DNA of 13,264 nucleotides, from IMG/VR virus record IMGVR_UViG_3300045988_145246; one strand, written 5' to 3'. The stretch is from a virus. The translations under genes were made by a program, and so were the position numbers. Below the pieces are notes generated by a model that saw nothing but the letters and a program-made list of their open reading frames with translations, did not search any database and was not told the origin of the DNA. The stretch's first letter is position 1. Each line of letters begins with the position of its first letter. This document shows positions 1-13,264 of the stretch, one piece after another.

Positions 1-131
1 CGCCTATATAGGTATCCGTGTACGGCGGACATTTGTCCGTCCCCCACGGACACACATGTCTGTCTGTCACGCACACACTCGAGACGTTTTGTCTTTCCTG
101 GGCGAACAGGTATTACAGTACATTTTGTTCT
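1..131. repeat. Left inverted terminal repeat. Core 1-110 is ~90% identical to the reverse complement of the right end, with a weaker extension to ~131. It contains a perfect hairpin gtccgt-ccccc-acggac (35-51), the palindrome ccgtgtacgg (16-25) and a (tgtc)3 run (58-69).
   Basis: Reverse complement of 13134-13264 aligns base-for-base with 1-131. Positions 1-84 have 5 mismatches (36, 38, 54-56) and 85-110 have about 5 more. The ITR is GC-rich against an AT-rich genome. Confidence 0.9.
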
Positions 132-140
132 CATAAAGAC

Positions 141-165
141 AAAAAAGAAAGGCGGTAAACCGCCT
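141..165 (-). terminator. Intrinsic terminator for leftward (early) transcription, at the ITR boundary.
   Basis: On the minus strand the RNA reads AGGCGG-UUUA-CCGCCU (plus 150-165), a 6-bp GC-rich stem with a tetraloop. It is followed immediately by UUCUUUUUU (reverse complement of 141-149). Confidence 0.7.
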
Positions 166-233
166 AACTTTAAAGTGAGTCTATTAAAAGTGTTAGTAGA
201 AAAATTAATATTCCTGCATAGATAAATACTGTC

Positions 234-262
234 ATTATATCACCCTCATAAATCTCTTTAAA
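234..262 (-). promoter_or_regulatory. Candidate extended -10 promoter firing leftward: TGaTATAAT with a weak -35 (TTTAAA) at 17-bp spacing.
   Basis: The reverse complement of 234-242 is tgatataat, a perfect TGnTATAAT. The reverse complement of 257-262 is tttaaa. It sits ~70-85 nt upstream of the 141-165 terminator. Confidence 0.3.
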
Positions 263-364
263 TAAAAATCTTTCCATTTTCTGTTATTTCTATAAACACA
301 CTGTATATATTTATTAGCATGTTTACATGTACTTTCATTAACACATCCCTTACATTCATTGTAT

Positions 365-484
365 TTATTCTTTATCATCTTTAAACCATCCTACAATAAT
401 ATCAATAGCAAGCAGCAACATTGTAACAATAAATATCCCTAAAGCACCTGTTAATAAATAATATAAAGTAAGAAATTCTCTCAT
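365..484 (-). CDS. Unannotated micro-ORF encoding a 39-aa single-pass membrane peptide (MREFLTLYYLLTGALGIFIVTMLLLAIDIIVGWFKDDKE). It is translationally coupled to the polymerase gene (ATGA overlap). It may be analogous to the phi29 p1 membrane protein encoded downstream of the polymerase.
   Basis: Hand translation of the reverse complement of 365-484. The ATG (482-484) overlaps the polymerase TGA stop (481-483). The peptide is one hydrophobic helix plus a charged tail. GGAGA lies 13 nt upstream. It is below the ORF-track size cut-off. Confidence 0.45.
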   Translation of the reverse strand: MREFLTLYYLLTGALGIFIVTMLLLAIDIIVGWFKDDKE

Positions 485-2544
485 AATCTTTTAATCTTCT
501 CCGTTTCTTTAAATAAGTTCCAATTTTCGGCATCCATCAGAACTCTGCTATACTCGTCTGTGATACCAATTTCATAGGTTGTCGGTCGTAGCACAATGTT
601 ACTTCTAATATCAATGTCATGACCTTCTTGTCCATCTGGATTATACATACCGTAATCCAGGTCATTGTAACGTGATTCCAGTTTTCCACAGTTCGAGAAA
701 ACGAAACCGATTTTAAAATTTTCCAGTGTTTTAAGTTCTTTAGCACCTTCTTTCTTTGGCACACCAGCAATGGTGATTCCGAATTTTCCGTCTTCATATT
801 CATATGCATATTTTTTCGCCCCCAATGTTTTGAATTCCTTGTATTTTCTCTCTTGTTCATAAACTCCTAGATAATGTGTTTTACCGAATGAATCAGTCGC
901 ATAACCTTTGTTATTTATACTCCTTTCTCTAATTTCATTGTTTAATTTTGTTATGTTATCCAAAATTTTGTTGTAATTGTCACTGATAATAAATTTCACA
1001 GAATCGGTATCACAGTAAACAAAATCATCACCCACAATGTTAATCATAAGTTTAAGATAATATCTAGCCCAACAGGTCACCCAACAACCCCATGCATATG
1101 ATAGAAAAGCTTTTTTATTATGTTTTTCCATAGCTTCATGTAAATCTTGCACAGGTTCAACTCTGAATGGTTTTTCACCATCATTGTATATGATCTCTGG
1201 TCTGATAGGATTTTGAGCACACATTCCATAAAGTGAATTAATGAGTTCTTTACTTTTCATGTAGTCAACTTCTTTTTCTTCAATGCCCTTTAGTTCTGTC
1301 TTATTTTTAAATAATGTGATAATCAGATTTCTTAATCCTTCTGGTAGGTAACCATATTTTGCAGTATAAACTGAAATGATTTCTATATCAAAATCATATT
1401 CGTTAATAATTATTTTATAATCAATATCAGTGAGTGATAAAACAATTCTATCACATGATAGCACTCTACCATTATCACATACAGGTTCTGACAGTTCTAA
1501 TGCTTTATCTTTGCTTATATATGGTGCACCATAGTAAACGTCTTTCTGACGAACATTTGTTAGTACAAATTTTCCGATAAAACATGAGTGTCGTCTTTCA
1601 CAAAGCTCAAGTAACTCATTAATATTATCAACCATACGTGGTGCAAAATTGCTCATTGGAAATTCACAGTTGAGCATCACATCTGGGTAACTACTCGCTC
1701 TATCCCAGCTGTCTACATTTTCCAGTATCTTATTTGAATGATACCGATTAGCGTGCGTATCACCGCCTCTGAATTCGTTTCGCAAAAGAATGTAAACAGT
1801 TTCATCGAAAAACATTTCATGTAACTGTTTATAGTTGAAGCTTTTCATAGCTTGTTTTGCTTTTCGTCTTACATATCCAGTGGACGTTAAAGGCAGACTA
1901 TAGAGAGTATCGCCATCATTATCCATTCTTTTTTTCATGGCTTCTACCAAACCTATGACATCATTTACTGAATATGCAATTTCATAGTTATCCATTTCAG
2001 TCCAGGGAAACCGTTTTTTGCTATAGTCAAATTTTTCACCACTTAATTTGCTGTGTTCCACTTTCATGTCACTGGTGAATTTTTTCAGACTTTTGTTGGT
2101 CTGTAGATAACTGCATCGAAAAACTATGTTATTAGATTTACAACTTAAAATTTTTCTACTTTTCAATGCAAAAACGTCGGTTATTTCTAACCAGTGCCGA
2201 AAGAACTGAAATTCATATGATAAGTTATGAACGAAAATTAAAGTTGATAAATATTCATCATTAATTTCATTAATCAGATTGACAAAAGAATTCCAGTTTC
2301 TATCATAGCAATAGTAGACGATTTCAGTTTCTAAATCCATCATTGCAAACTGCCATATGTACATAAAAGACTGTTCATTTTCTTTTTCGTATGTGGTTTC
2401 TATATCGAAGGCACAAATACACTTTCGGAAAGCGGTTTTATCCCATCTATGTCTGCCTTTAAAGTTTCTATCTGCTTTTACCCCCTTTACTAAATTTATC
2501 ATTTTTTGAACGTCTACTAAAGAAGTCTTTTCTGTACTCATCAT
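481..2544 (-). CDS. Protein-primed family-B DNA polymerase (phi29/PRD1/adenovirus class).
   Basis: Exo I FDIETT, Exo II HNLSYEFQF, Exo III YSVND, motif A DRASSYPD, motif B KELINSLYGMCAQN, motif C YCDTDS and a KKY (KxY) motif, all in canonical order. The polymerase sits at the end of a linear genome with ITRs. Confidence 0.95.
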   Translation of the reverse strand: MMSTEKTSLVDVQKMINLVKGVKADRNFKGRHRWDKTAFRKCICAFDIETTYEKENEQSFMYIWQFAMMDLETEIVYYCYDRNWNSFVNLINEINDEYLSTLIFVHNLSYEFQFFRHWLEITDVFALKSRKILSCKSNNIVFRCSYLQTNKSLKKFTSDMKVEHSKLSGEKFDYSKKRFPWTEMDNYEIAYSVNDVIGLVEAMKKRMDNDGDTLYSLPLTSTGYVRRKAKQAMKSFNYKQLHEMFFDETVYILLRNEFRGGDTHANRYHSNKILENVDSWDRASSYPDVMLNCEFPMSNFAPRMVDNINELLELCERRHSCFIGKFVLTNVRQKDVYYGAPYISKDKALELSEPVCDNGRVLSCDRIVLSLTDIDYKIIINEYDFDIEIISVYTAKYGYLPEGLRNLIITLFKNKTELKGIEEKEVDYMKSKELINSLYGMCAQNPIRPEIIYNDGEKPFRVEPVQDLHEAMEKHNKKAFLSYAWGCWVTCWARYYLKLMINIVGDDFVYCDTDSVKFIISDNYNKILDNITKLNNEIRERSINNKGYATDSFGKTHYLGVYEQERKYKEFKTLGAKKYAYEYEDGKFGITIAGVPKKEGAKELKTLENFKIGFVFSNCGKLESRYNDLDYGMYNPDGQEGHDIDIRSNIVLRPTTYEIGITDEYSRVLMDAENWNLFKETEKIKRL

Positions 2545-2977
2545 ATCTTTCTAATAACTCCTTTTTGCTTAGTTCTGGATTTTCCTGATAAATATTGATG
2601 GCTCTTTCACTATCGTAAATAGTTCCGATAGAGAATTCACGCACTGATTCCATGAAATCTTCAAATCTTCTTATATCTTTAATATTTCTTACTCTGTCTT
2701 TTCCTAGTTCCTGTTGTAACCATGTAACACGTTCTTTTCTTTTTCGTTTTCGTTCTGCCTGCGTCCAGTTTATCTGATTAGCCTTTTCTGCTTCTTTCAT
2801 AGCATATGCCAAATCTCTTGAATCCTTTAACTGACTTACTGGTTTCAAACGCTCTTTATAGTAATTGATAGTGTTTTGGATGTCTCTACCATAAGGGCTT
2901 TTTTCAAGTTTTTTTATCTTTTGTAAAACCTGTTTTCTCAAGTTGCTATAACTGGCTTGCTTTTGCTTTTTAGTCAT
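2468..2977 (-). CDS. 169-aa strongly basic (K/R-rich, coiled-coil ERKRKRKER) protein immediately upstream of the polymerase. It is a candidate terminal (priming) protein or another DNA-binding replication protein.
   Basis: Its position relative to the polymerase matches the TP-pol arrangement of phi29-like phages. The 3' end overlaps the polymerase 5' end by 77 nt out of frame. I recognise no diagnostic motif. It is small for a terminal protein. Confidence 0.4.
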   Translation of the reverse strand: MTKKQKQASYSNLRKQVLQKIKKLEKSPYGRDIQNTINYYKERLKPVSQLKDSRDLAYAMKEAEKANQINWTQAERKRKRKERVTWLQQELGKDRVRNIKDIRRFEDFMESVREFSIGTIYDSERAINIYQENPELSKKELLERYDEYRKDFFSRRSKNDKFSKGGKSR

Positions 2978-3137
2978 TTTTATTCAATCTTCTTTCTTTT
3001 ATAAACTCTTTAAAGATTTTAGAATCATTAATCAAAATACCTATAGTACTGCTAACACTTCTGTTGTTCTCAAGAGCATACTGCTTTAATGCTGTTAGCA
3101 TTTCAATGTCAAAATTGATTGATGTAGTTGTTTTCAT
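2970..3137 (-). CDS. Unannotated 55-aa ribbon-helix-helix (Arc/MetJ/CopG-type) DNA-binding regulator (MKTTTSINFDIEMLTALKQYALENNRSVSSTIGILINDSKIFKEFIKERRLNKND).
   Basis: I verified the codon-by-codon translation of the reverse complement of 2970-3137. The order is an N-terminal beta-strand (SINFDIEM), then helix A (LTALKQYALENN), then NRSVSS..I helix B, which is the RHH signature (compare Arc ..NGRSVNSEI..). AAGGGGG RBS lies 9 nt upstream. Its TAA stop overlaps the ATG of the next gene. It is below the ORF-track cut-off. Confidence 0.6.
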   Translation of the reverse strand: MKTTTSINFDIEMLTALKQYALENNRSVSSTIGILINDSKIFKEFIKERRLNKND

Positions 3138-3153
3138 TTTTTGTCGCCCCCTT

Positions 3154-3408
3154 TTATTCCACTGTGATTATTTGATTATTTATTGTTTTAATGCTCAAAG
3201 ATAAAAATGAACAAATAAGATAATCATAGGAGGAATCGTTTTCAGAGTAAATTTCAAATTGTTCTGATGCAATATCATATGCTAGAATATATTCCACTGT
3301 ATTAAATTTAATTTCATTGATAGTTATAAATTTGTTAGTTTCCCACAAATTAAATAAATAATTTTTTAATTCATCTTCATCATAAAAGTTTTTTATATTA
3401 TTTTCCAT
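3154..3408 (-). CDS. 84-aa very acidic small early protein (net charge about -10, no Arg). Candidate DNA-mimic anti-defence protein.
   Basis: ORF with a strong RBS (AAAGGAGGTGATAAATA-ATG). About 17 D/E against 7 K. Early leftward operon, immediately upstream of the RHH regulator. Confidence 0.65.
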   Translation of the reverse strand: MENNIKNFYDEDELKNYLFNLWETNKFITINEIKFNTVEYILAYDIASEQFEIYSENDSSYDYLICSFLSLSIKTINNQIITVE

Positions 3409-3500
3409 TATTTATCACCTCCTTTCGTATTATCATACCATTCAGCTAAAATTATTAGCCAGATACCTGCACAAATTCCTAACAAAAATGAAGCTATCAT
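3408..3500 (-). CDS. Unannotated micro-ORF encoding a 30-aa single-TM peptide (MIASFLLGICAGIWLIILAEWYDNTKGGDK). ATGA-coupled to the upstream gene, and its TAATG junction overlaps the downstream gene.
   Basis: Hand-verified translation of the reverse complement of 3408-3500. The ATG overlaps the TGA of the 82-aa ORF. Its 3' end carries the RBS of the next gene. Confidence 0.4.
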   Translation of the reverse strand: MIASFLLGICAGIWLIILAEWYDNTKGGDK

Positions 3501-3745
3501 AATATCACCTTATAAGAATGATCAGTAGAGATACTTTTTATATGTGATGAAATTATACCACAGATAAAAGCCCCATCATTGGCATATATTTTAATAAAGT
3601 TGTTCGGTGTTTCGTCAGTAGTTTTATCAAAATAAATCTTTGTTTCATTAGTTAAAAATGATATCTCATTAATGTTTACAACTACCTCATTTTTCCATCC
3701 GTCTGTTAAAATTGCTACTAATTTTTCTCTAGTTTTGATTGTCAT
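3497..3745 (-). CDS. 82-aa hypothetical early protein, first gene of the leftward operon.
   Basis: ORF with RBS AAAGGAAA 8 nt before the ATG. Function not recognisable. Confidence 0.65.
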   Translation of the reverse strand: MTIKTREKLVAILTDGWKNEVVVNINEISFLTNETKIYFDKTTDETPNNFIKIYANDGAFICGIISSHIKSISTDHSYKVIL

Positions 3746-3798
3746 TGTATTATTTTCCTTTCTTTAACTACTTTGTTTTCTTGTTCCTTACAAGTATT

Positions 3799-3827
3799 AT
3801 AATATCACAAGTGCTATTAAATGTCAA
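3799..3827 (-). promoter_or_regulatory. Candidate leftward early promoter: -35 TTGACA (reverse complement of 3822-3827), 17-bp spacer, -10 TATTAT (reverse complement of 3799-3804). Alternatively, a perfect TATAAT (reverse complement of 3796-3801) at 20-bp spacing.
   Basis: Read on the minus strand. It lies in the 239-bp divergent intergenic region upstream of the 3745 start. It overlaps a 10-bp palindrome TATTATAATA (3795-3804). Confidence 0.4.
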
Positions 3828-3879
3828 TAACTTTCAACAACTTTTTAGAAAAAATTCTTTCCTTATTATATACACCAAA

Positions 3880-3940
3880 ACAAGCACTAAAATAAAAACC
3901 TAAATTTCCTATTGACAATAAACATAAACAATGCTATAAT
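3880..3940 (+). promoter_or_regulatory. Strong rightward sigma-A promoter: -35 TTGACA (3912-3917), 17-bp spacer, -10 TATAAT (3935-3940), with A-tract UP-element-like sequence upstream (3880-3911).
   Basis: Perfect consensus hexamers at optimal spacing. It is followed by a ~38-nt A-rich leader and an AAAGGAG RBS for the 3985 ORF. Confidence 0.75.
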
Positions 3941-3984
3941 AACAATGTAAACAAAAACAACACAAAATAAAAGGAGAACAAAGC

Positions 3985-4206
3985 ATGACAAGAACCATCA
4001 TTACAACACATTACAAAGCTACAACCCCATCCGGTGAAGTTGTAGAAGGTGAAGTTATCACCTCAATGTCAGGCAGACAGCTTGTAAAGTACATTAAAAA
4101 AGTACATGGCATTGAAGAATTTGAACTTTCAACTCACTACACTAGTGACAAGTATGAACTTTCTGATGAAGACTTCATCAGATATGCTACAAAAGTAGAA
4201 AAATAA
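3985..4206 (+). CDS. 73-aa small acidic hypothetical protein, first rightward gene.
   Basis: ORF with RBS AAAAGGAGAACAAAGC-ATG. No recognisable domain. Confidence 0.65.
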   Translation: MTRTIITTHYKATTPSGEVVEGEVITSMSGRQLVKYIKKVHGIEEFELSTHYTSDKYELSDEDFIRYATKVEK

Positions 4207-4264
4207 TTATAACTTTTTTTGCAGGTCTTTCCTAAATTACATCACTAAATAACTGAATAATATG

Positions 4265-4336
4265 CACTCATTATATGTAACCTCACAAAATCAAAAAATT
4301 TGCACGGTTTCTCATCAAGCTGTCATATAATGAGTG
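4265..4336. promoter_or_regulatory. Perfect 13-bp inverted repeat: CACTCATTATATG (4265-4277) and CATATAATGAGTG (4324-4336), separated by 46 bp. The right arm embeds a plus-strand TATAAT (4326-4331) and the left arm a minus-strand TATAAT. A TTGCAC -35-like hexamer sits at 4300-4305 with non-optimal 20-bp spacing.
   Basis: Found by direct reverse-complement comparison. Located between the stop of the 73-aa ORF and the RBS of the 119-aa ORF. Confidence 0.4.
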
Positions 4337-4363
4337 AAATAAAAATCAAAAAGGAGAACAAAT

Positions 4364-4723
4364 ATGGAAATCGTAAAAACAAACATCATGGACAACGAAT
4401 GGAACATGGATATCAGTTATGATATGTTTGAAAGTCCAGACCGTCAGTCAGTAAAAGACAACAGTGGGGAAATTGCAACAATCCAGAAATTTGCCATCTA
4501 TGAAGAGTATGATAATACTGGAAATGTTATGCGATTGTTAACAATGCTTACCATTACTGGTAATGTATATGTTACTTCTTCACCTGCATTTATCCGCACA
4601 TTTGAAAGAATTGCGGAACTAGCACAGCGTTCTCATTTAGACACATTCACAATCACATTCAGAAAAGAAAAAAGCAAAAACAACCGTGAGTACATGACAG
4701 CAATATATGTTAAAGAATCTTAA
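4364..4723 (+). CDS. 119-aa hypothetical protein.
   Basis: ORF with RBS AAAAAGGAGAACAAAT-ATG, nearly identical in context to the 3985 RBS. Its 3' end overlaps the ATPase gene start by 17 nt. Confidence 0.7.
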   Translation: MEIVKTNIMDNEWNMDISYDMFESPDRQSVKDNSGEIATIQKFAIYEEYDNTGNVMRLLTMLTITGNVYVTSSPAFIRTFERIAELAQRSHLDTFTITFRKEKSKNNREYMTAIYVKES

Positions 4724-5765
4724 ACTATACAACGAACAAGGATATCTAAATTTTAAGGGGATAGTCGAACAAGGCTATCCCTTTAATTTTATCTGGGGCG
4801 GTCGTGGAACAGGTAAAACTTTCGGGGCATTAGAATATTGCATAAAAAATAAACAAGTGTTCATGTACTCACGAACAAAACAGACACAGTTAGACATCAT
4901 CAAAAACCCCGAACTTACACCAGTTAAAGCAATCAATGATTACCGTCGCACCAATATCCAGCCATTTCCAATATCCAAAATCGCAGGGTTCTATAATTGT
5001 GTTGTAAATGAAGAAGGAAAGAACATTCCAGACGGATTACCTCTAGGATATGCGTCAGCTATCAGTACAATTTCCAACCTACGAGGATTCTCAGCAGAAG
5101 ACGTTAAAATCTGGATATATGATGAGTTCATTCCTCAGAAGGGGGATAAAGTACAACGTGGGGTAGCGGAATCGTTTCTGCATGGTTACGAAACAATGAA
5201 CCGTAACCGTGAGTTGCAGGGCAAACCCCCCATACAGGTGTTCTGTCTTTCCAACAGTGACAATGTAGGTTGTGAGCTATTCGCTCAGTTAGGATTAATC
5301 CGAAAAGTATCAGAAATGTCACGGAAAAAACGTGAAACATATTACATTAAAGACAGAGGTATCGCATTATATAATCTGTGTAACTCTCCTATTTCCAAAC
5401 TTAAGGCAGAAACCTCACTCTATAAAATGACAGGAAAAGACAGCGGTTTTGCACAACTGTCACTGGAAAATGAATTTTTCGACATGGATTTCTCAGACGT
5501 AAAACCCCAAAACTTAACTGAATATGTCCCACTTCTGTTCTTCGGGGAAATTGCAATATATACCCATAAGTCTCAGGAAAAACTCTATGTCTGCAAACAC
5601 AGACAAGGCACACCAGAGGAATGCTACAATGCAGTAACCGACAAAGCTATTTTGGCACTCAAACGGAAATACTCCTGGATATGGAATATATACTACCTCA
5701 ACGATCTCATCTATTTTTCCGACCTTGAATCGAAGTATCTACTTGACACTTATTTCCACATGTGA
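4707..5765 (+). CDS. DNA packaging (encapsidation) ATPase of the phi29 gp16 type.
   Basis: Arginine-containing Walker A FIWGGRGTGKTF (compare phi29 gp16 GARGIGKS, from memory). Walker B IWIYDEF. A downstream NRNRE...CLSN block that I recall as conserved in gp16 (NRERVRCICLSN). Similar size (352 aa). Confidence 0.85.
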   Translation: MLKNLKLYNEQGYLNFKGIVEQGYPFNFIWGGRGTGKTFGALEYCIKNKQVFMYSRTKQTQLDIIKNPELTPVKAINDYRRTNIQPFPISKIAGFYNCVVNEEGKNIPDGLPLGYASAISTISNLRGFSAEDVKIWIYDEFIPQKGDKVQRGVAESFLHGYETMNRNRELQGKPPIQVFCLSNSDNVGCELFAQLGLIRKVSEMSRKKRETYYIKDRGIALYNLCNSPISKLKAETSLYKMTGKDSGFAQLSLENEFFDMDFSDVKPQNLTEYVPLLFFGEIAIYTHKSQEKLYVCKHRQGTPEECYNAVTDKAILALKRKYSWIWNIYYLNDLIYFSDLESKYLLDTYFHM

Positions 5766-5887
5766 TACAATGTCTTTAGAGGGCAGACATATGTGTGCAG
5801 TTCAAGGACAACCGTCGGAAACGGTGAACGTGCGTTCGTCCAACGCAAAAGGCACACCTGCCCCACTAAATAAAAGGGGGTTGACCA
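5766..5887 (+). other. 122-nt GC-rich (~50% GC against ~33% genome) non-coding spacer with a dense, perfectly nested stem-loop architecture including a three-way junction. Candidate structured RNA or regulatory element.
   Basis: Stems atgtct/agacat (5770-5775 / 5785-5790) and gtgtgc/gcacac (5793-5798 / 5852-5857). Stem ggac/gtcc (5806-5809 / 5838-5841) encloses two abutting hairpins, accgt-cggaa-acggt (5811-5825) and gaac-gtgc-gttc (5826-5837). The overlapping 65-aa ORF (5725-5922) looks spurious. Confidence 0.3.
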
Positions 5888-6085
5888 ATGGACGTAAACA
5901 CATTCGCACAGTTATTCTCTAACTTAGGCATTCCAGTTGCATGCCTATGCGTGACTTTCTATCTGTGGTACACTGAGACACAGAACCACAAAGAAGAAAT
6001 GAACAAAATGACAGACGCTGTAAATAACAACACTCTGATTTTACAACGACTCCTTGACAAACTGGGAGAGGATGAAACAACATGA
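5888..6085 (+). CDS. Holin-like small membrane protein (BhlA/UviB-family architecture): short N-terminus, one TM segment (FAQLFSNLGIPVACLCVTFYLWY), then a charged coiled-coil tail.
   Basis: 65 aa. RBS AAGGGGG 7 nt upstream. Architecture and the FYLWY-TETQ-KEE region resemble BhlA as I remember it. ATGA-coupled to the next gene. Confidence 0.5.
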   Translation: MDVNTFAQLFSNLGIPVACLCVTFYLWYTETQNHKEEMNKMTDAVNNNTLILQRLLDKLGEDETT

Positions 6086-6390
6086 ATCTATCAGCAAAAA
6101 TCATCACAACAGACGAAATGCCGGAAACATATACCGACTTGCACCCACATCCAGAATTCTATGGTGAATGTGAAATCACAACCAAAAAGGATGATTTATT
6201 TTTACGCACACAGCCTACCACTGACTCAGAGGTAATCACCTCATTGAAAAAAGGTTCTTCATTTTTTTCTTTTGGCTTGTTCGATTCTTCCTTGAAATGG
6301 GTTCTAGGACAAGCCAAACTTCCTACAGGGGAAATGGTGGCAGGTTTCGCATACATACAATATCTCACACTGAAAGGAGAAAATAAATGA
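6082..6390 (+). CDS. 102-aa stand-alone bacterial SH3 (SH3b) cell-wall-binding domain protein with no catalytic domain.
   Basis: LFLRTQPTTDSEVITSLKKGSSF...W....AKLPTGE..GFAYIQYL matches the SH3b pattern (L.VRSGPSTSS.VIG.L.KG..V......GW.KI...G..GYV...YL). ATGA overlaps with both neighbours. Confidence 0.6.
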   Translation: MNLSAKIITTDEMPETYTDLHPHPEFYGECEITTKKDDLFLRTQPTTDSEVITSLKKGSSFFSFGLFDSSLKWVLGQAKLPTGEMVAGFAYIQYLTLKGENK

Positions 6391-6884
6391 CATTTGAGCA
6401 ATTAATTGCACTAACTTCAGCAGGTTTCACTAAAGCTGACATCATGGCACTGGCACAGACCCCAGCACCAGCACCAGCACCAGCACCAGCACCAGCACCA
6501 GCACCAGCACCAGCACCAGCACCAGCACCAGCAACAGGATTTATGCCACAGCCAGTTCAGCCGACAGGGATTGCACCAGCGACAGCAGGACAGCCAGCAC
6601 CAGTAATTCAGGGATTCGGTAATCCGATTAATCCACAGCAGGGTGTGCAGGAACAGTTCTATGCGGATGCAATGGCACAGAATGGTCAGCAGATGCAGCT
6701 GGACATGGGAAACATGGGGGTTGTTAAAAACAACGACCCATTAATCGAAACTATTAACAATCTTACAAGAGCAGTACAGGCTAATGGAATTGCTAACAGT
6801 CAGATGCCGACACAGGCACAGCCGACTGTTGATGATATGTTAGCTGAGATTATCAGACCTAGCGGTCAGAATGGGGGTAAATGA
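6387..6884 (+). CDS. 165-aa low-complexity protein: a 24-aa N-terminal helix, a (Pro-Ala)12 rigid linker, then a Q/G/P/N-rich disordered region. It sits where a scaffolding protein would be expected (just before the putative capsid gene).
   Basis: ORF with RBS AAAGGAG. ATGA junctions at both ends. GC-rich relative to the genome because of its P/A/G/Q composition. Confidence 0.7.
   Translation: MTFEQLIALTSAGFTKADIMALAQTPAPAPAPAPAPAPAPAPAPAPAPATGFMPQPVQPTGIAPATAGQPAPVIQGFGNPINPQQGVQEQFYADAMAQNGQQMQLDMGNMGVVKNNDPLIETINNLTRAVQANGIANSQMPTQAQPTVDDMLAEIIRPSGQNGGK
6462..6533 (+). repeat. Perfect tandem hexanucleotide repeat (CCAGCA)x12, in frame, encoding (PA)12.
   Basis: Counted directly: 72 bp of uninterrupted ccagca units. 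Confidence 0.95.
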
Positions 6885-8080
6885 TGGGTTCAACCGATAG
6901 TATTCTAAATAATATTCCAACTGTTTCCAATTTTAAATCAATAGAATTATTAAATTTTATCGTTAACCAGGCAACAGGAAAAACATCTCTGGAACGTGCA
7001 ACAACACAGGATTTTGTCAGTGTTGCAAATATAGCTTTGGATATTTCAGCAGATTCATTATTAAATGCTATATCACAAACATTATCACGCACTATTTTTT
7101 CCGTACGTCCTTACGAAGCAAAATTCAAGGGACTTATGAAAGATGAAATGTGTTTCGGAAACCATGTCAGAAAATTAAATATTGGAGATAAAGATTGGGA
7201 AAAAGATATACGTTATGATTTAGTCGATGGACAAAGTATTGACGATCAAATTGTATCTAATCCCAATATTTTACAGACAAACTTTTATGGTCAGAATGTG
7301 TATAGTAGACATTATACAATATACCGTGACCAACTGAATATTGCACTCTCCAACGAGGGAGAATTCCAGCGTTTTATTACAATGATTGTTCAGAACTGTT
7401 CAGATATGATTGAGCAGTGCCATGAAAGTACTGCAAGAATGACACTTGCAAACTTCATCGGGGGGAAAGTAAAAGGGGATGTTAACAACATTATCCATCT
7501 TGTTACAAAGTACAATGATATTGCAGGAACAGAACTTACCACTGATACAGTAAGACAGCCCACAAATTTTGTTCCATTTATCAAATGGGCTTTCGGATAT
7601 ATCAGTTACATTTCTGGAATGCTCACGGAGCGTTCTCAGAAATTTCATATTAATATTACTGGAAAAGAGATTTCCAGGCATACACCGCAGAATAGACAAA
7701 AACTGTATCTATTCAGTGAATATTTAAAAGACATGGATGCGAGTGTTCTGTCATCCGTATACAATGACAATTACCTGAAATGGGCAGACCATGAACAGGT
7801 TAATTTTTGGCAGTCAATTGATACACCAGACGGAATCAATGTATCTGCTAGTTATATGGGGGAAGACGGAAATGTTGTGTTAGACCCTACAGGAACAGCC
7901 ACGAGTAATATTTTCGGTGTTCTTTTTGATGAAGAGGCTATTGGTATTACAACATGTGGTCAGTGGTCTAGTGCCAGCCGGTTTAATGCTCGGGGTGGTT
8001 ACACTAACTTCTGGTATCACTTTAACGACAGATATTATAATGACTTTACGGAAAATGGTGTTGTTTTCCTACTGGATTAA
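6881..8080 (+). CDS. 399-aa putative major capsid protein (by size and synteny with phi29 gene 8, immediately after the scaffold-like gene).
   Basis: Largest protein-coding gene pair together with the next ORF. Its position precedes a tail-knob-like gene and a connector homologue. No motif-level proof. Confidence 0.45.
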   Translation: MMGSTDSILNNIPTVSNFKSIELLNFIVNQATGKTSLERATTQDFVSVANIALDISADSLLNAISQTLSRTIFSVRPYEAKFKGLMKDEMCFGNHVRKLNIGDKDWEKDIRYDLVDGQSIDDQIVSNPNILQTNFYGQNVYSRHYTIYRDQLNIALSNEGEFQRFITMIVQNCSDMIEQCHESTARMTLANFIGGKVKGDVNNIIHLVTKYNDIAGTELTTDTVRQPTNFVPFIKWAFGYISYISGMLTERSQKFHINITGKEISRHTPQNRQKLYLFSEYLKDMDASVLSSVYNDNYLKWADHEQVNFWQSIDTPDGINVSASYMGEDGNVVLDPTGTATSNIFGVLFDEEAIGITTCGQWSSASRFNARGGYTNFWYHFNDRYYNDFTENGVVFLLD

Positions 8081-8089
8081 GGAGTGTGT

Positions 8090-9556
8090 ATGGCTTTAAC
8101 AGTTGATTTTTTTCAGATTTCAAAACGGAAAAATAGTACATTTGTTCCGGCTGAATCAGCTATCCAGAAAACTGAAAATGCGGTTTTAAAAGAGGGGTGT
8201 GGGGTTTTATCCCCCACCCTTATTTTACATTTTCCTTATAACGCTAATCCGTATGTGTGGAATTTTGTGAGGATTAGAGAATTCAACCGTTTTTACTGGG
8301 TGGTTGAGTGGACTGTAGCGGATGGTGTCGGGAACTGGGAACTAAGCTTGAATGTTGATGTATTAGCAAGTTACAGGGATGCAATAATTCAGAAAGATTT
8401 CTATATTGAAAGATGTAGTGTTGCCAGTAATGGTGATATTATTGATTTAATGTATCCAGCAACTGCAAAGCAGTCTTTTGCCACCTCTAAACAAACAATG
8501 TGGGAGGATTCTAATTGGAGTGGTGGTACTTTTGTTTGCTGTATTCTGGGAAAGAATGGGCTTGTTAATTATTATCTTTTCAAAACAGAAGCATGGAAAA
8601 ATGTAATTAAAAGTATGTTTTCCTCCACTGACTGGATGAAAGTACCTATCACTGATATACCAGAAGCAGTGTTAAAAGCTGCGGTGAATCCAGGGCAGTA
8701 TATGCTTAAATGTTTCTGGTTGCCTATGACAGTTGAGACAAAGTTTATTCCTGCTAACATAGACATTGGATGGTGGGAGATTGCTATGACTGGACAGGCA
8801 GGAAATACCAGTTGTATTCTTGACAATCAGGCATTAATAAGTAAGACACTGACATTTGAAACGACCGCCCATCCTCAGAGTGTAAGAGGTAATTATCTTA
8901 ATAATTCGCCTTATACCAGAGGGGCATTATTTTCCCATGTGTTCGGGTATATGCCTATCGACATGAACAGTTTGGACGCTGGAAATTCTTTTAATGTAAG
9001 CGTGATTGTTGACCCTCGAACAGGTATTTGTGAATTAAGAGCATATCAGGGAAATACTACTCTTGCTTTAGCATCAAAAAATATTTCATGTCCGATAACC
9101 GTAGGAAACATTACTGATGATACTGTAAGTTTAGGTGCTACTGCAACAAGTGCTGTTAGTGGACTTGTTAACCTTATTTCTGGTGGTTTTGATGCTATTG
9201 GAAACGAAAATAAAAGTATTAATGGTGATGTACTTTCCAGAGAGTTTTTACCTACCGGTTTAGGGGCTAACATTGGTAACGCTCTTAACAGTCTCAGGGG
9301 AAAAAGCGTTGTGAAAAGCGGTGACGGTTCGCTGATTAATTCACTTGGAAGTTTATGGTTTGAGCAAGAATTTTCATACGTTGTTGATTATAACAACGGT
9401 ATGTTTGGGAAACCATATTGTAGCACAGGAAAAATGGCTGATTTAGGAACTGGATTCTATCTTATAAAAAATGGCTCTATAGGCTTGGAATTTGCGTTTG
9501 AAAGTGAAATCAATCAGGTTCGGGAATGGCTGGAAAGAGGTGTATACTATGCTTAA
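8090..9556 (+). CDS. 489-aa putative tail (knob/tube) protein, phi29 gp9-like by position. It has a long Gly/Ser/Ala/Asn-rich flexible loop near the C-terminus (SLGATATSAVSGLVNLISGGFDAIG...GLGANIGNALNSLRG), as the phi29 tail knob does.
   Basis: The likely start is the ATG at 8090 (RBS AAGGAG) rather than the GTG at 8084. Synteny and the loop composition are the only evidence. Confidence 0.4.
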   Translation: MALTVDFFQISKRKNSTFVPAESAIQKTENAVLKEGCGVLSPTLILHFPYNANPYVWNFVRIREFNRFYWVVEWTVADGVGNWELSLNVDVLASYRDAIIQKDFYIERCSVASNGDIIDLMYPATAKQSFATSKQTMWEDSNWSGGTFVCCILGKNGLVNYYLFKTEAWKNVIKSMFSSTDWMKVPITDIPEAVLKAAVNPGQYMLKCFWLPMTVETKFIPANIDIGWWEIAMTGQAGNTSCILDNQALISKTLTFETTAHPQSVRGNYLNNSPYTRGALFSHVFGYMPIDMNSLDAGNSFNVSVIVDPRTGICELRAYQGNTTLALASKNISCPITVGNITDDTVSLGATATSAVSGLVNLISGGFDAIGNENKSINGDVLSREFLPTGLGANIGNALNSLRGKSVVKSGDGSLINSLGSLWFEQEFSYVVDYNNGMFGKPYCSTGKMADLGTGFYLIKNGSIGLEFAFESEINQVREWLERGVYYA

Positions 9557-10217
9557 AAGTTCATATCAGGACAATGCATTACTATTCTATATACGAGGAC
9601 GGTCAACAACTGGTAATTATCCACCTGGAGATCCAGGTGTTGTTCCTACTGTTGGAGACTGGTTCTATAAAGTTACTGATACTACTGCTGGATATTTTGC
9701 TAAAAATGGAGCAGAACAGCAAAGAAATGCTGCTAATATTTACAAGTATTTTCATGAAACACTCGGATGGGATTCAGACAGCGTTTGTGCATTAATCGGA
9801 AATATGGACGCTGAATCTACACTCAATCCTGGGCTGATTGAAGTTGGTGGAGGTACTACATCCGCCGGGCCAGGTAGGGGACTTGTACAGTGGACTCCTG
9901 GTACAGACTTAACTAATCCTATGAAAGTTGTTTATGGTTCTGCTGATGACTGGTATGATGGCTCTAAACAATGCCGAGTTATATACGCAGAATTTGAGCA
10001 GTCCACAGGAAGTAAAAACTGGGGTATTGAGCCACAATGGTATAAGGGATATGGTTATAACCTCAGTTGGACTGAATGGGCTTTTAATCAACAGCACCAT
10101 AACATTGATTATTTAGTTGAAGCATTTTGTTGGGAGTACGAAAGACCAGGTGCACCTAGAATGGAAGAAAGAAAAGCAAGGGCACAGTACTGGGCGACGG
10201 TTTTTAGAAAGGGGTGA
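9549..10217 (+). CDS. 222-aa virion-associated peptidoglycan hydrolase, lysozyme/lytic-transglycosylase-like (phage tail-tip lysozyme type), with no signal peptide or wall-binding domain.
   Basis: NMDAESTLNPGLIEVGGG...GRGLVQWTPG resembles the ES...GL(M/V)Q catalytic signature of SLT/lysozyme-like folds. The ATG at 9549 (RBS AGAGG) overlaps the stop of the previous gene. It is embedded among tail genes. Confidence 0.5.
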   Translation: MLKSSYQDNALLFYIRGRSTTGNYPPGDPGVVPTVGDWFYKVTDTTAGYFAKNGAEQQRNAANIYKYFHETLGWDSDSVCALIGNMDAESTLNPGLIEVGGGTTSAGPGRGLVQWTPGTDLTNPMKVVYGSADDWYDGSKQCRVIYAEFEQSTGSKNWGIEPQWYKGYGYNLSWTEWAFNQQHHNIDYLVEAFCWEYERPGAPRMEERKARAQYWATVFRKG

Positions 10218-10223
10218 TTAATT

Positions 10224-11177
10224 TTGTACAATGGATATAACACAATTCCAGCCGGACAGGATTATATCAATTATTACAATGGTATATATAGTCCTAGCAC
10301 ATTGCATTGCAGAAATAATGCTTTACATGCTTATTTTGTGAAATATTTATTGCAGAAAGCAATGAGCGTTTTCGAGTGGGAGTTGCCCGAAACTTGGAGT
10401 GAGAACTACTTTTTGTACACCTTATATACATGGGGTTTTGTAGGAGTTCTTGAAACTGACCGATATGGAGTTATATGTCAGGGAGCAGGAATCGAAGGGT
10501 ATGATATCTATTATCAACCATCACATATTGTAGTAACTAACCCTTTGCTTATTGGGACAAAGCAATTAAGAATTGGTGTAGAATGCGAGGTTATTAGATT
10601 AACTCCTGATTGGTCTGGAATTATTGACATGATTAATTATTACGCAGACCAGATGGCAATTACAGCAGAAGCAACTACTATAAACATTATGAATTCTAAG
10701 CTGAGTTATGTATTCAGTGCCAGAAACAAAGCTGGTGCTGAGTCGTTGAAAAAGATTCTTGACCAGATAATGGGTGGTAATATTGCTGTTTTCTACGATG
10801 AAAAACTGAGACGTGCTAATCCAACAGGTGGTAGTGAAGAACCATGGGCTACTTTTGCACAAGATTTAAGAAGTAATTTCATTGCACCGGATTTACAGGA
10901 CAGCATGAGAAGATGGGAAGAACTTTTTAATAATGAGATTGGCATTGATAATGTTCGGAGTGACAAGAAAGAACGACTGATAACAGCAGAAGCGAATGCC
11001 AATAATGTTGAGTGTCGCTGTAAAGCTGAATTGTGGTTAGACACTTTGAAAAAATGTGTTGAAAAAGTCAACAAAATGTTTGGCACAAATATAAAAGTAG
11101 ATTGGAGACATGATGCTACTATGAAGGGGGGCGCTGATGATGGCGACAATGACACTAATGGGGCTGTTAACTTATGA
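10224..11177 (+). CDS. Head-tail connector (portal/upper collar) protein, phi29 gp10 family.
   Basis: 317 aa against 309 aa for phi29 gp10. The block FVKYLLQKAMSVFEWELPETW...WGFVGV matches my recollection of gp10 ...LAYQLFEWENLPPT...FGYVGF. KKERLITAEA matches KKERMVTDEV. Acidic C-terminus. TTG start with an AAGGGG RBS. Confidence 0.6.
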   Translation: MYNGYNTIPAGQDYINYYNGIYSPSTLHCRNNALHAYFVKYLLQKAMSVFEWELPETWSENYFLYTLYTWGFVGVLETDRYGVICQGAGIEGYDIYYQPSHIVVTNPLLIGTKQLRIGVECEVIRLTPDWSGIIDMINYYADQMAITAEATTINIMNSKLSYVFSARNKAGAESLKKILDQIMGGNIAVFYDEKLRRANPTGGSEEPWATFAQDLRSNFIAPDLQDSMRRWEELFNNEIGIDNVRSDKKERLITAEANANNVECRCKAELWLDTLKKCVEKVNKMFGTNIKVDWRHDATMKGGADDGDNDTNGAVNL

Positions 11178-11751
11178 CCCAGAAATACTAAATGAGAATT
11201 TTAATCTACCCAATTCTCTCTTAAGTATAAAGACAAAACTCTTAGAGCATATTGTTTTTGAGTGTGCAGAACTGGAAATTGTTATATCAGACCCAGTTTG
11301 GTTCGGACGTGTGCTAGATGCCTGGTCATTTATAATGTCGCCACAGTGGGAATATTTTCTTAAGTGGAAACTAGCACAGGATGAAATCACGACAGAAGAT
11401 GCTAAAGGTGGACGAAAACTCACCAAAAAGAGTACTCGAACACCGGAACTCACAACACGAACCACAAATATTACAAGCAACGAGGAGAATGGCGAAACAA
11501 CCATTTCCAACAGTGCCTATAATCAGGACAAATATTATCCATCGGAACAAAGGGATGATAGTAGTTTGCAGAATATTGAAAGTGATGGAACAATTCGTTA
11601 TAGCGGTTCAGAAAGTTATCAGTATGAGGAAAACGAAAATGTTGTTTTTGATATTGAAGACATTGATAAAATTTTGAAGAATGGTTATGTCAATATCGCT
11701 AATATTATTTGTACAGATTTCAAAGAACGATTTTGTTTGATGGTTTATTAA
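11137..11751 (+). CDS. 204-aa putative lower-collar/tail-associated protein (by position after the connector).
   Basis: ORF with RBS AAGGGGGG. Synteny only. Confidence 0.3.
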   Translation: MMATMTLMGLLTYDPEILNENFNLPNSLLSIKTKLLEHIVFECAELEIVISDPVWFGRVLDAWSFIMSPQWEYFLKWKLAQDEITTEDAKGGRKLTKKSTRTPELTTRTTNITSNEENGETTISNSAYNQDKYYPSEQRDDSSLQNIESDGTIRYSGSESYQYEENENVVFDIEDIDKILKNGYVNIANIICTDFKERFCLMVY

Positions 11752-11764
11752 AGGAGGTATAAAT

Positions 11765-13057
11765 ATGGCTTTTTGGAATAATTTTCCTTTTACCAATTTC
11801 CATGAACTTAATTTAGATTGGATTATTGGAAAAGTGAAAGCTTTGGAAACAGGTTTCATGAATGTAGTTAAGAAAGTAGATGATGCCTTAGCAGAAATCA
11901 AAAAAGAAGTAGATGATGCTATCCAGCAAATTCCGACAAAGGTAGATAATTTACTGACAGAATGGAAAGATGATGGTACACTTGGAACAATGATTGATAC
12001 CATTTACGGTGGACTTTCCTATCTCGATGTAATGAAAGATAAAACTATCTACGTTTTGGGAGACAGCTTGAGTGATGGGCAAGCACCCCGAAGCTGGGTG
12101 ACAGAATTTGAAAAATTGCTTGTCGGAAAAAACTGCCACGTTATGAATGGGGCACACTCGGGCGATACCATGGCAGAACAGTATGCCATTTTTGATAGGA
12201 ATATGACATTGCACCCTGAAAATGTACCAGATATTCTGATTGTATGGTGTGGTGTTAATGATGTTAAGAAACAGACAAGCTTAACTGATTTAGGGGCTAC
12301 CATGGATAGCATTAGAAACAAAATTCAGTCTATTAATGCAGCTTGTCAGGTTTACCTTTTTAGCACGTATAAAAATTACCGTGTTTTACCGGATCAGTGG
12401 ATTATTCCACAAACTGCATATTGGAGATATTTCAGTCAGTATGCACAGCAGAACGGATGGACTTTTGTGGACATGTTTGCTTATGCACCTGTAATCTCAC
12501 CAGAGACAGACCGTATGAGAGCAGAATTTTACGAAGAACAGAACAGCGGATATTTGCATTATACAGTGAGATATACTAAGATTCTTGCTAGATTTATTCT
12601 CAATGTTTTGTGTACTGGTATGCCGATTGCTTTAGGGGATTATTGGGAACGTGTCAATGGAAACTATCTGGATGGTGCAAAAATTTTTACAAACAAGGAA
12701 GAATTTGACCCGAACTTAAATGGTAGTCATATCCGATTCGGAACCCGGTTTGTGAAAATCAGAATTGCAGGAACATTTAAACCTAAAAACACATCTTCAT
12801 TACAGTATGTTAAAATTGGAAAGCTACCAGATTTTCTGATTCCAGCTTCTACAATTTATGGTCTTGCGTATCGAGGTGGTGGTTGGGGTTCTACTGGTGC
12901 AAACGCTACTTTTGGAACATTGGTAGATAGCGACGGTTCTCTGTTGGTACATCCACTTGCGAAAGAAGGAACAAGTTATACATCTACAACTATTTATTTT
13001 GACATTTACATTTTTGACCTTGCAACTGACTGGCAGAGGAAACAGACAGTTTCTTAA
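11765..13057 (+). CDS. 430-aa tail fibre/appendage-like protein with a central SGNH/GDSL esterase domain. The N-terminus is a coiled-coil virion anchor and the C-terminus a beta-rich domain.
   Basis: Block I YVLGDSLSDG (nucleophile Ser), block II NGAHSGDT, block III WCGVNDV, and block V His in SGYLHYT with the Asp position replaced by Ser. Perfect RBS AAGGAGGTATAAAT-ATG. It is the last gene before the right ITR, where phi29 has gp12. Confidence 0.7.
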   Translation: MAFWNNFPFTNFHELNLDWIIGKVKALETGFMNVVKKVDDALAEIKKEVDDAIQQIPTKVDNLLTEWKDDGTLGTMIDTIYGGLSYLDVMKDKTIYVLGDSLSDGQAPRSWVTEFEKLLVGKNCHVMNGAHSGDTMAEQYAIFDRNMTLHPENVPDILIVWCGVNDVKKQTSLTDLGATMDSIRNKIQSINAACQVYLFSTYKNYRVLPDQWIIPQTAYWRYFSQYAQQNGWTFVDMFAYAPVISPETDRMRAEFYEEQNSGYLHYTVRYTKILARFILNVLCTGMPIALGDYWERVNGNYLDGAKIFTNKEEFDPNLNGSHIRFGTRFVKIRIAGTFKPKNTSSLQYVKIGKLPDFLIPASTIYGLAYRGGGWGSTGANATFGTLVDSDGSLLVHPLAKEGTSYTSTTIYFDIYIFDLATDWQRKQTVS

Positions 13058-13089
13058 AACTAATTCTAGTTAGTTGTAACTACTCATCA

Positions 13090-13135
13090 GACCTGTTTGT
13101 TCTATACAGACAGGTCGAATGTATGTTCGTTTCTA
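13090..13135 (+). terminator. Candidate terminator for the rightward late transcript: stem gacctgtttgt/acagacaggtc (11 bp with one G-U) closing a 5-nt loop, followed by a moderately U-rich tail.
   Basis: Inverted repeat at 13090-13100 and 13106-13116. The downstream sequence is GAAUGUAUGUUCGUUUCU. Placed 33 nt after the last stop codon. Confidence 0.3.
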
Positions 13136-13264
13136 GAACAAAATGGACTAAAATGCTGTTCGCCCAGGAGAGACAAATTGGCTCGAGTGTGTGCGTGACA
13201 GACAGACACTGGTGTCCGTGGGGGAAAGACAAATGTCCGCCGTACACGGATACCTATATAGGCG
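13134..13264. repeat. Right inverted terminal repeat, partner of 1-131. The hairpin seen at the left end is degraded here (gtcttt instead of gtccgt).
   Basis: Direct comparison of the reverse complement with the left end. Identical landmarks include ctcgag at 79-84 and 13181-13186, and tcctgggcgaacag. Confidence 0.9.

Follow-up and report, generated by a model that had tools for sequence, protein, structure and literature searches.

The DNA examined here, IMG/VR virus record IMGVR_UViG_3300045988_145246, is a stretch of 13,264 nucleotides that is referred to throughout as the window. It is bounded by inverted terminal repeats (ITRs), carries leftward genes at 235-3745 and rightward genes at 3985-13057, and holds a previously unannotated structured RNA of about 95 nt just after its packaging ATPase gene. 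The data are best explained if the window is the complete linear double-stranded DNA (dsDNA) genome of a virulent phi29-type podophage of the human gut, which would package its terminal protein (TP)-DNA with an RNA resembling the prohead or packaging RNA (pRNA) of phi29; the probability of this whole explanation is put at about 0.85. The features on which it chiefly depends are as follows.

1-131, left ITR (core 1-109): terminal CGCC, TATATA at 5-10 and phased GTCCG/CGGAC half-sites at about 14-18, 26-30, 35-39 and 47-51
481-2544, minus strand: protein-primed family-B DNA polymerase (alternative start 2502)
2468-2977, minus strand: terminal-protein candidate (169 aa, basic); its ORF immediately precedes the polymerase gene and overlaps with it
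3799-3940, region with two divergent promoters, TTGACA-17-TATTAT at 3827-3799 (minus strand) and TTGACA-17-TATAAT with TG at 3912-3940 (plus strand)
3985-4206, plus strand: probable p6-like dsDNA-binding protein, 73 aa
4364-4723, plus strand: predicted p5-like single-stranded DNA-binding protein, 119 aa
4707-5765, plus strand: gp16-type packaging ATPase, full length including the C-terminal domain
5743-5771, plus strand: promoter TTGACA-17-TACAAT with extended TG, directly upstream of the RNA
5775-5872, plus strand: pRNA-like structured RNA
6881-8080, plus strand: major capsid protein (MCP), phi29 type
10224-11177, plus strand: head-tail connector, gp10-like
13134-13264, right ITR (core 13156-13264)

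Physical ends and hallmark genes

The two ends of the window are inverted copies of each other, as an earlier note on this DNA had reported: the arms 1-109 and 13156-13264 are 92% complementary (9 mismatched positions per 109), the match extends to about 131/130 nt with a single indel, and the initial 37 nt are identical in both copies. Left and right alike, the termini begin CGCCTATATAGG, and the same terminal base begins or ends four independent IMG/VR contigs (L009, L012, L006/L043; L numbers denote related genomes and contigs). In contig L010 an Illumina adapter tail (...GACGCTCTTCCGATCT) is joined straight to C1 of the terminal CGCC, and in contigs L005/L042 the adapter tail GATCT is joined to it in the same way. 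Position 1 is a physical DNA end, because adapter sequence is fused to C1 in these related contigs, and such junctions arise because fragment ends pile up heavily at a physical end. The sister clade, whose MCP is 63% identical to that of the window, has termini AAAGTATA... (L016, L021, L024, L025, L030 and L031) in register with CGCCTATA... of the window; the AAAGTA of these ends is exactly the phi29 ITR, and the window clade has CGCC in that register. Between the two clades TATA(T/C)A at 5-10, GTCCG at 14-18 and CGGAC at 26-30 are kept. The window carries both true physical termini of a linear dsDNA genome.

Remnants of Illumina TruSeq adapter stand at the ends of the public IMG/VR contigs L005/L042, L010, L019 and L038, a contamination of the records that is nonetheless informative on DNA ends. 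The right end of L009 has 20 additional, unexplained bases (GCGAAAGGAGTGGTTCAGAA) past the conserved terminus.

Within the window ITR, GTCCG/CGGAC recurs about every 10 bp and makes overlapping small palindromes, followed by GTCTGTCTGTC (14-68 and 13197-13251). To judge from their phasing, these half-sites are likely an origin-binding array, which may serve the p6-like protein. As speculation, the CGC end, with the same base at positions 1 and 3, would permit a two-base jump-back after internal initiation. ITR length had been singled out earlier as an unusual trait and turns out to be ordinary in this clade, where relatives have repeats of 55-351 bp; those of Clostridium phi29-like phages measure 25-30 bp.

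The polymerase matches PF03175 (E 1e-9, 38.2 bits against a cut-off of 25.8) and phrog_1907 (E 6e-64), and its sole PDB sequence match is the phi29 DNA polymerase 1xhx (E 8.7e-7, aligned residues 326-551). The ATPase matches phrog_2150 (E 2.6e-24); its single sequence falls short of the Pfam cut-off (20.9 vs 25), and single-sequence PDB searches with the ATPase, the MCP and the esterase appendage described below gave no matches. An ATPase family profile built without phi29 finds gp16 with 99.4% probability (E 2.8e-21, 1-335 against 1-316 of 332 residues), as well as PDB entries 7jqq (E 1e-19) and 5hd9. The connector matches PF05352 above cut-off (E 4e-24) and phi29 gp10 in PDB entry 1h5w (E 2e-15), and the MCP matches PF25622, likewise above cut-off (E 4e-21). 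These results bear out the phi29-family character that the earlier note had given to polymerase, ATPase and connector, and the hallmark genes, along with the physical ends seen in related contigs, uphold its description of a phi29-type genome that is complete, linear, protein-primed and bounded by long ITRs. The phi29-like polarity that it described is likewise confirmed, with divergent consensus promoters between the leftward and rightward genes.

The same note had found no genes for a single-stranded DNA-binding protein (SSB) or a dsDNA-binding protein (DSB), and here it needs correction. The product of 4364-4723 reaches E 6.7e-5 and 23.5 bits against PF17427, just below the 25-bit cut-off; nine of the ten members of its family match PF17427, and the family aligns with phi29 p5 in hhalign (E 8.8e-5, probability 60%), which identifies the ORF as encoding a predicted p5-like SSB. 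The product of 3985-4206 is probably a p6-like DSB: phrog_6370, described in PHROG as 'dsDNA binding protein', is matched at E 0.003 and by four of ten family members, and hhalign gives a collinear, nearly full-length alignment with phi29 p6 (E 6.5e-4, probability 28%) that includes YEL..E.F..A..VEK.

No terminal protein is recognisable by sequence, which counts against the overall explanation. The 169-aa open reading frame (ORF) upstream of the polymerase gene has no similarity to the phi29 TP or to astrithr gp02 in hhalign and no PHROG match, and its single Pfam match, to an unrelated family, is sub-threshold. By its place it is still the most likely terminal protein. It occupies the position that gene 3 has relative to gene 2 in phi29, contains an IYDS motif that is invariant and conserved across clades in the family alignment, and has a weak collinear match with the ORF preceding the polymerase gene of phage AD70P2. 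A homologue search with it returned close relatives only (at least 77% identity), and exact copies of the protein occur on near-full-length contigs of ENA metagenome assemblies. Neither this candidate nor the pRNA-like RNA had been mentioned in the earlier note.

Two other views of the element as a whole were weighed. Assembly might have created the terminal repeats artificially, or the genome might be circular or concatemeric and the contig a permuted part of it; some related public contigs (L001, L004, L022 and L024) do lack ITRs or are permuted or truncated. This is hardly credible, however, when several independent assemblies stop at exactly one common base, adapter is joined to that base in two contigs and the sister clade has a homologous terminus in the same register; furthermore, the ITR copies are not one collapsed repeat, because they differ at 9 of 109 positions. 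The element might otherwise be a capsid-encoding linear plasmid, an option raised by the earlier note, or a phage-plasmid kept in its host rather than a virulent phage. Plasmids occur among protein-primed linear replicons, a 2024 review includes phi29-like phage-plasmids of about 30 kb, and one small leftward ORF has a weak resemblance to Arc/ribbon-helix-helix proteins. Against this, the 13.3 kb yielded no partition, integrase, repressor or toxin-antitoxin gene, nor any other plasmid maintenance or lysogeny gene, and the right two-thirds consist entirely of a virion and lysis module. The cultured relatives AD70P2 and AD70P3 were obtained as phages from sewage, and relatives turned up in just two metagenome-assembled genome (MAG) bins and in no isolate genome. 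A plasmid lifestyle is therefore considered very improbable, and a virulent phage is retained as the preferred reading.

A structured RNA downstream of the ATPase gene

The spacer of 122 nt between the ATPase gene and the next gene has 50% G+C, compared with about 36% for the genome, and is conserved across clades, between which its length differs by non-multiples of three. The RNA that it contains has, from 5' to 3', a helix A with a 5' bulge, a three-way junction, a helix C of 4 bp, a bulge, an E hairpin and a D hairpin. In the window the bulge, on the 5' side only, is the 7-nt AAGGACA, the E loop is CGGAA and the D loop is CGUCC; GGAC at the end of the bulge is complementary to GUCC at the end of the D loop. 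The minimum free energy (MFE) fold of the window RNA alone already yields this structure (z = -3.1).

Strong covariation across about 90 distinct genomes attests the fold. When 18 sequences were aligned with MAFFT without regard to structure, 95.3% of cells paired, as against 34-41% with slid partners, and 17 of the 31 pairs had compensatory changes. A further 55 distinct sequences gave 92.7% paired cells, compensatory changes in 24 of 27 pairs and a covariation score of 0.642, compared with at most 0.115 in slid controls, in an alignment that is biased towards structure as it was fitted to the covariance model. The models find exactly one copy per genome in 36 and then in 60 further loci. All copies share the strand of the ATPase gene and, with the exception of that in L001, which heads the structural operon, follow this gene directly. 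ATPase identities among the model-positive genomes run from 97% down to 38%, with L041 detected only when filters were off. Directly before the RNA, a promoter that matches at least 10 of 12 consensus positions is present in 81% of 86 distinct cases, compared with 0.7% of background windows.

The bulge and the D loop can pair throughout. At least four contiguous Watson-Crick pairs are available in 89% of 36 distinct cognate combinations; for non-cognate combinations the share is 6% and for shuffled loops 12%. This pairing of 4-5 nt is maintained through more than 20 sequence types, AACCA/UGGUU among them. Meanwhile, the E loop CGGAA is almost invariant. Other spacers, including the phi29-like left-end position (140-485), gave unremarkable single-sequence folds.

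In L067-L089, a clade with 46-47% ATPase identity, the RNA has an extra hairpin inserted after the E hairpin. About 10-45 nt past the RNA these genomes have a perfect, terminator-like hairpin followed by TTTT (CATATGCAG...CTGCATATGTTTT), so that their RNA may be a discrete, terminated small RNA.

The architecture is that of the phi29 pRNA as represented by the Rfam consensus: a bulged helix A, a three-way junction, helix C, the E hairpin and the D hairpin in the same order. The bulge is on the 5' side only in both, with 9 nt in the phi29 pRNA consensus and 7 nt in the window RNA; the D loop has 5 nt in both and 5-6 nt across the RNAs compared; and both have 4-5 complementary bases at the 3' ends of bulge and D loop that covary between phages. 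In phi29 pRNA, published work has the last four bulge bases (AACC) pairing with the last four D-loop bases (GGUU) of a neighbouring molecule, and the AACCA/UGGUU of one subclade resembles this pair. The differences are a shorter helix C, junction linkers of 1, 1 and 4-5 nt, the nearly invariant CGGAA, no obvious domain II and transcription as the head of the late operon; here the RNA follows the ATPase gene as a late-operon leader, whereas the pRNA is at the left end in phi29.

A comparable arrangement may exist in AD70P2 (L002). At 6384-6506 on the minus strand, just after its ATPase gene, a promoter is followed by an RNA of similar layout, recognised by eye and from its MFE fold: helix A is GAGGG/CCCUC, helix C is GUUGC/GCAAC and the bulge is AUAUCCAAU, E and D hairpins are present, and AUCC is complementary to GGAU. 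This candidate is missed by the covariance models, and the sole relative found for a covariation comparison is an identical contig.

Whether the RNA acts in packaging or as a cis-acting leader was considered with the following in view. U-runs follow helix A in only 9% of examples, and the Shine-Dalgarno (SD) sequence and start codon of the next gene lie within 10-60 nt of the RNA in most genomes; the RNA is for these reasons the 5' leader of the late mRNA. The chief competing explanation makes that its whole role: a leader controlling read-through, mRNA stability or late-gene translation, perhaps via a phage protein on the invariant CGGAA loop, in which the bulge/D-loop pairing would be an intramolecular pseudoknot. 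Several results favour it and weigh against a packaging RNA. The late transcript starts with the RNA, behind its own promoter; in L001 the RNA accompanies the structural operon at a long distance from the ATPase gene, as would also suit a cis-regulatory element; covariation cannot separate intermolecular pairing from an intramolecular pseudoknot; and sequence models fail to connect the two RNA families. RF00044 (Phage_pRNA), with which the phi29 pRNA positive control scores 145 bits, has no match up to E 10 in the whole window or a 161-nt query, and the new covariance models, with filters off, find nothing in phi29, AD70P2, astrithr or Clostridium phage HM2. As RF00044 and the new models each miss the other family, it is on architecture that any homology to pRNA must be argued. 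Rfam searches at permissive thresholds likewise gave no credible family for the whole window or the 161-nt region.

On the other side, the order of elements, the 5'-side-only bulge, the size of the D loop and the place of the 4-5 complementary bases all match phi29 pRNA, and such an RNA is found in the very phage group whose homologous ATPase and connector are known to need one. No terminator or SD-sequestering pairing conserved across clades is seen, nor a consistent expression platform, and the scant non-coding space of the window gave no second conserved structured RNA candidate. Published work has the phi29 gp16 ATPase docking through pRNA. A packaging role is favoured because the architecture matches in detail and because the homologous gp16, including its C-terminal domain, and gp10 are the known partners of pRNA. 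With some reservation, the RNA at 5775-5872 is thus probably the packaging RNA of this lineage, and a purely cis-acting leader is rather unlikely.

Reviews of 2016 and 2024 describe packaging RNA as known only in phi29 and related Bacillus phages, and a literature search found no report of pRNA outside Bacillus phages, although its coverage was incomplete and it is no proof. The finding bears on whether other phages with gp16-type ATPases use pRNA. We lean towards the view that the RNA is a genuine pRNA, in which case pRNA would be ancestral and widespread in gp16-type motors rather than peculiar to Bacillus phages of the phi29 group. If the RNA is indeed a pRNA, the RNA component would date back to the common ancestor of these motors; it would be present in a hundred or more tiny gut phages with a different genomic wiring, as a late-operon leader, and would supply a large natural set of three-way junctions and more than 20 orthogonal kissing-loop pairs for RNA nanotechnology. 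If it is a cis regulator instead, it would be a new phage RNA motif that has converged on a pRNA-like shape.

Other genes and the proposed life cycle

The remaining features of the window are these.

150-165, minus strand: terminator-like hairpin with T-run, closing the leftward operon
235-378, minus strand: 47-aa Cys-rich ORF (CKGC...C...C) between the polymerase stop and the left ITR
2970-3137, minus strand: 55-aa ORF, possible transcription regulator (weak Arc/ribbon-helix-helix resemblance, all matches sub-threshold)
3154-3408 and 3497-3745, minus strand: two small early ORFs of 84 aa and 82 aa
5888-6085, plus strand: protein of 65 aa, encoded first in the late operon and conserved across clades, with a single hydrophobic helix at its N-terminus
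6082-6390, plus strand: 102-aa protein, weak SH3_3 match
6387-6884, plus strand: 165-aa protein with (Ala-Pro)n repeat, placed before the MCP gene and hence a scaffolding candidate (phi29 order 7-8)
8084-9556, plus strand: tail knob with predicted gp9 fold, 490 aa, disordered Gly/Ala-rich loop at residues 342-401
9549-10217, plus strand: tail-associated lysozyme like the gp13 N-terminal domain (PF18013, E 6e-24; start codon per gene calls)
11137-11751, plus strand: lower-collar (gp11) candidate, 204 aa, by synteny (phi29 order 9-10-11-12)
11765-13057, plus strand: tail appendage with SGNH/GDSL esterase domain (PF13472, E 4e-13)

The 47-aa Cys-rich ORF is without a family match and is 58-68% conserved within the near clade. 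The 65-aa protein that opens the late operon is possibly a holin. Inside the scaffolding candidate, 6447-6540 is a perfect (GCACCA)n tandem repeat that encodes (Ala-Pro)n, and near relatives have versions of this protein between 151 and 169 aa long. Assemblies seem to break at the (GCACCA)n repeat, as is suggested by the many public Logan/ENA contigs of this phage that measure about 6.2-6.8 kb, roughly half of its genome. A tRNA scan of the window found none.

The 490-aa knob has no sequence-family match, and profiles of the knob and the collar candidate found none among PDB sequences. An AlphaFold model of the knob built with 40 homologues (predicted local distance difference test, pLDDT, 78) has as its top Foldseek matches phi29 gp9 (5fb5, E 3e-12, probability 1.0) and the gp12 knob of phage C1 (4eo2), in agreement with the gp9-like knob proposed earlier. 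Its Gly/Ala-rich loop lies at a place comparable to that of the pore-forming loop of gp9. In L007, L010 and L011 the capsid and connector are 82-97% identical to those of the window, yet the knob is only 36-37% and the lysozyme 34-40% identical (undetected in L010). Such a pattern suggests that the knob-plus-lysozyme cassette (8084-10217) has been swapped by recombination and is probably a host-range module.

Further comparisons did not confirm the collar assignment: the hhalign match is weak (E 0.004, probability 9%), and the AlphaFold2 model (pLDDT 59) finds no fold match. The appendage had been called a gp12-like enzymatic one, and this stands as an analogy and fails as homology, since the domain is an SGNH esterase and only the N-terminal 60-80 aa are kept in distant relatives. 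By this distribution its N-terminal anchor of about 80 aa appears conserved and its distal part, predicted to be enzymatic and receptor-binding, exchangeable.

Under the whole explanation the genome would replicate from both ends by protein priming, with the terminal protein, likely the 169-aa ORF product, priming the family-B polymerase, and with the p5-like SSB and the probable p6-like DSB assisting. Leftward and rightward early transcripts would start from the divergent promoters near 3800-3940, and the third consensus promoter, at 5743-5771, would start the late transcript, the first 95 nt or so of which would take on the architecture of the phi29 prohead RNA. Probably after release from the leader, the RNA would form multimers on the connector via bulge/D-loop kissing pairs and dock the gp16-type ATPase so that the TP-DNA can be packaged. 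Virions would comprise a phi29-type capsid, the connector, a probable lower collar, a gp9-type knob with a membrane-active loop, the tail lysozyme and the esterase appendage.

Relatives and comparison with phi29

The suggestion of an undescribed lineage does not hold. One further IMG/VR record, L006 (IMGVR_UViG_3300045988_124862), is collinear with the window, its proteins being 94-100% identical to those of the window. IMG/VR yielded about 37 relatives via the MCP and at least 459 via the ATPase, and it contains well over 100 relatives of 12-14 kb. Some 30 further genomes of 12.3-13.9 kb match the window in their complete gene order and in having the RNA, and have ITRs of 85-351 bp. GenBank contains relatives from human faeces as 'Bacteriophage sp.' MT83xxxx without annotation, and among the IMG/VR and GenBank records some are truncated, permuted or carry adapter remnants. 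A 2024 review lists phi29-like phages of 11-14 kb and tabulates many gut genomes of 12-15 kb. The genome is a new member of this already sampled clade of 12-14-kb phi29-like gut phages, with near-identical contigs in public records. A nucleotide search of the GenBank phage collection gave no match to the window; the best protein matches there are 47% (polymerase) and 61% (MCP) identical.

Two relatives of the window, L050 and L051 (MCP 52-53% identical, a third clade), lie in MAG bins assigned to Wujia sp. and Acetatifactor sp. (Lachnospiraceae), a weak hint at a Lachnospiraceae host that applies to these third-clade relatives only. A scan of genome contigs found no relatives in isolate genomes.

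Among named phages, the cultured Amedibacillus phages AD70P2 and AD70P3 (12.3 kb; ITR of AD70P2 55 bp) and the Astrithrvirus-type phages (Salmonella astrithr, Pectobacterium DU_PP_III and Acinetobacter Phanie; 11-12 kb) have the same core genes as the window. Their polymerases are 31-37% and their MCPs 22-32% identical to those of the window, and their genes are unidirectional. AD70P2 and AD70P3, the closest cultured relatives, which are filed under Guelinviridae in GenBank, account for the upper values (polymerase 37%, MCP 32%); the 2024 review places the Amedibacillus phages in an MCP cluster separate from the Clostridium phages. The polymerase is about 23-24% identical to those of phi29 and BSTP6, and the window is not a close relative of the phi29 group (Salasmaviridae proper).

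Compared with phi29 itself, the window lacks a p4 homologue, a head fibre, a gp12 pectin-lyase appendage and a right early operon. Its ATPase and SSB/DSB genes open the rightward block; their phi29 counterparts belong to the right end or to the left operon. The phi29 genome of 19,282 bp has a 6-bp ITR and AAAGTA ends, and the window, with 13,264 bp, an ITR of about 110-131 bp and CGCC ends, is smaller by the roughly 6 kb that the earlier note had stated. In common with phi29 it is linear with ITRs and has a protein-primed family-B polymerase, a small basic ORF at the place of gene 3 (TP), a predicted p5-like SSB and a probable p6-like DSB. The likeness extends to the gp16-type ATPase, the gp10 connector, the type of MCP, the predicted gp9-fold knob, the gp13-type lysozyme and an RNA of pRNA architecture. 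As in phi29, early and late genes are transcribed divergently, and the late genes follow the same order of MCP, knob, connector, candidate collar and appendage.

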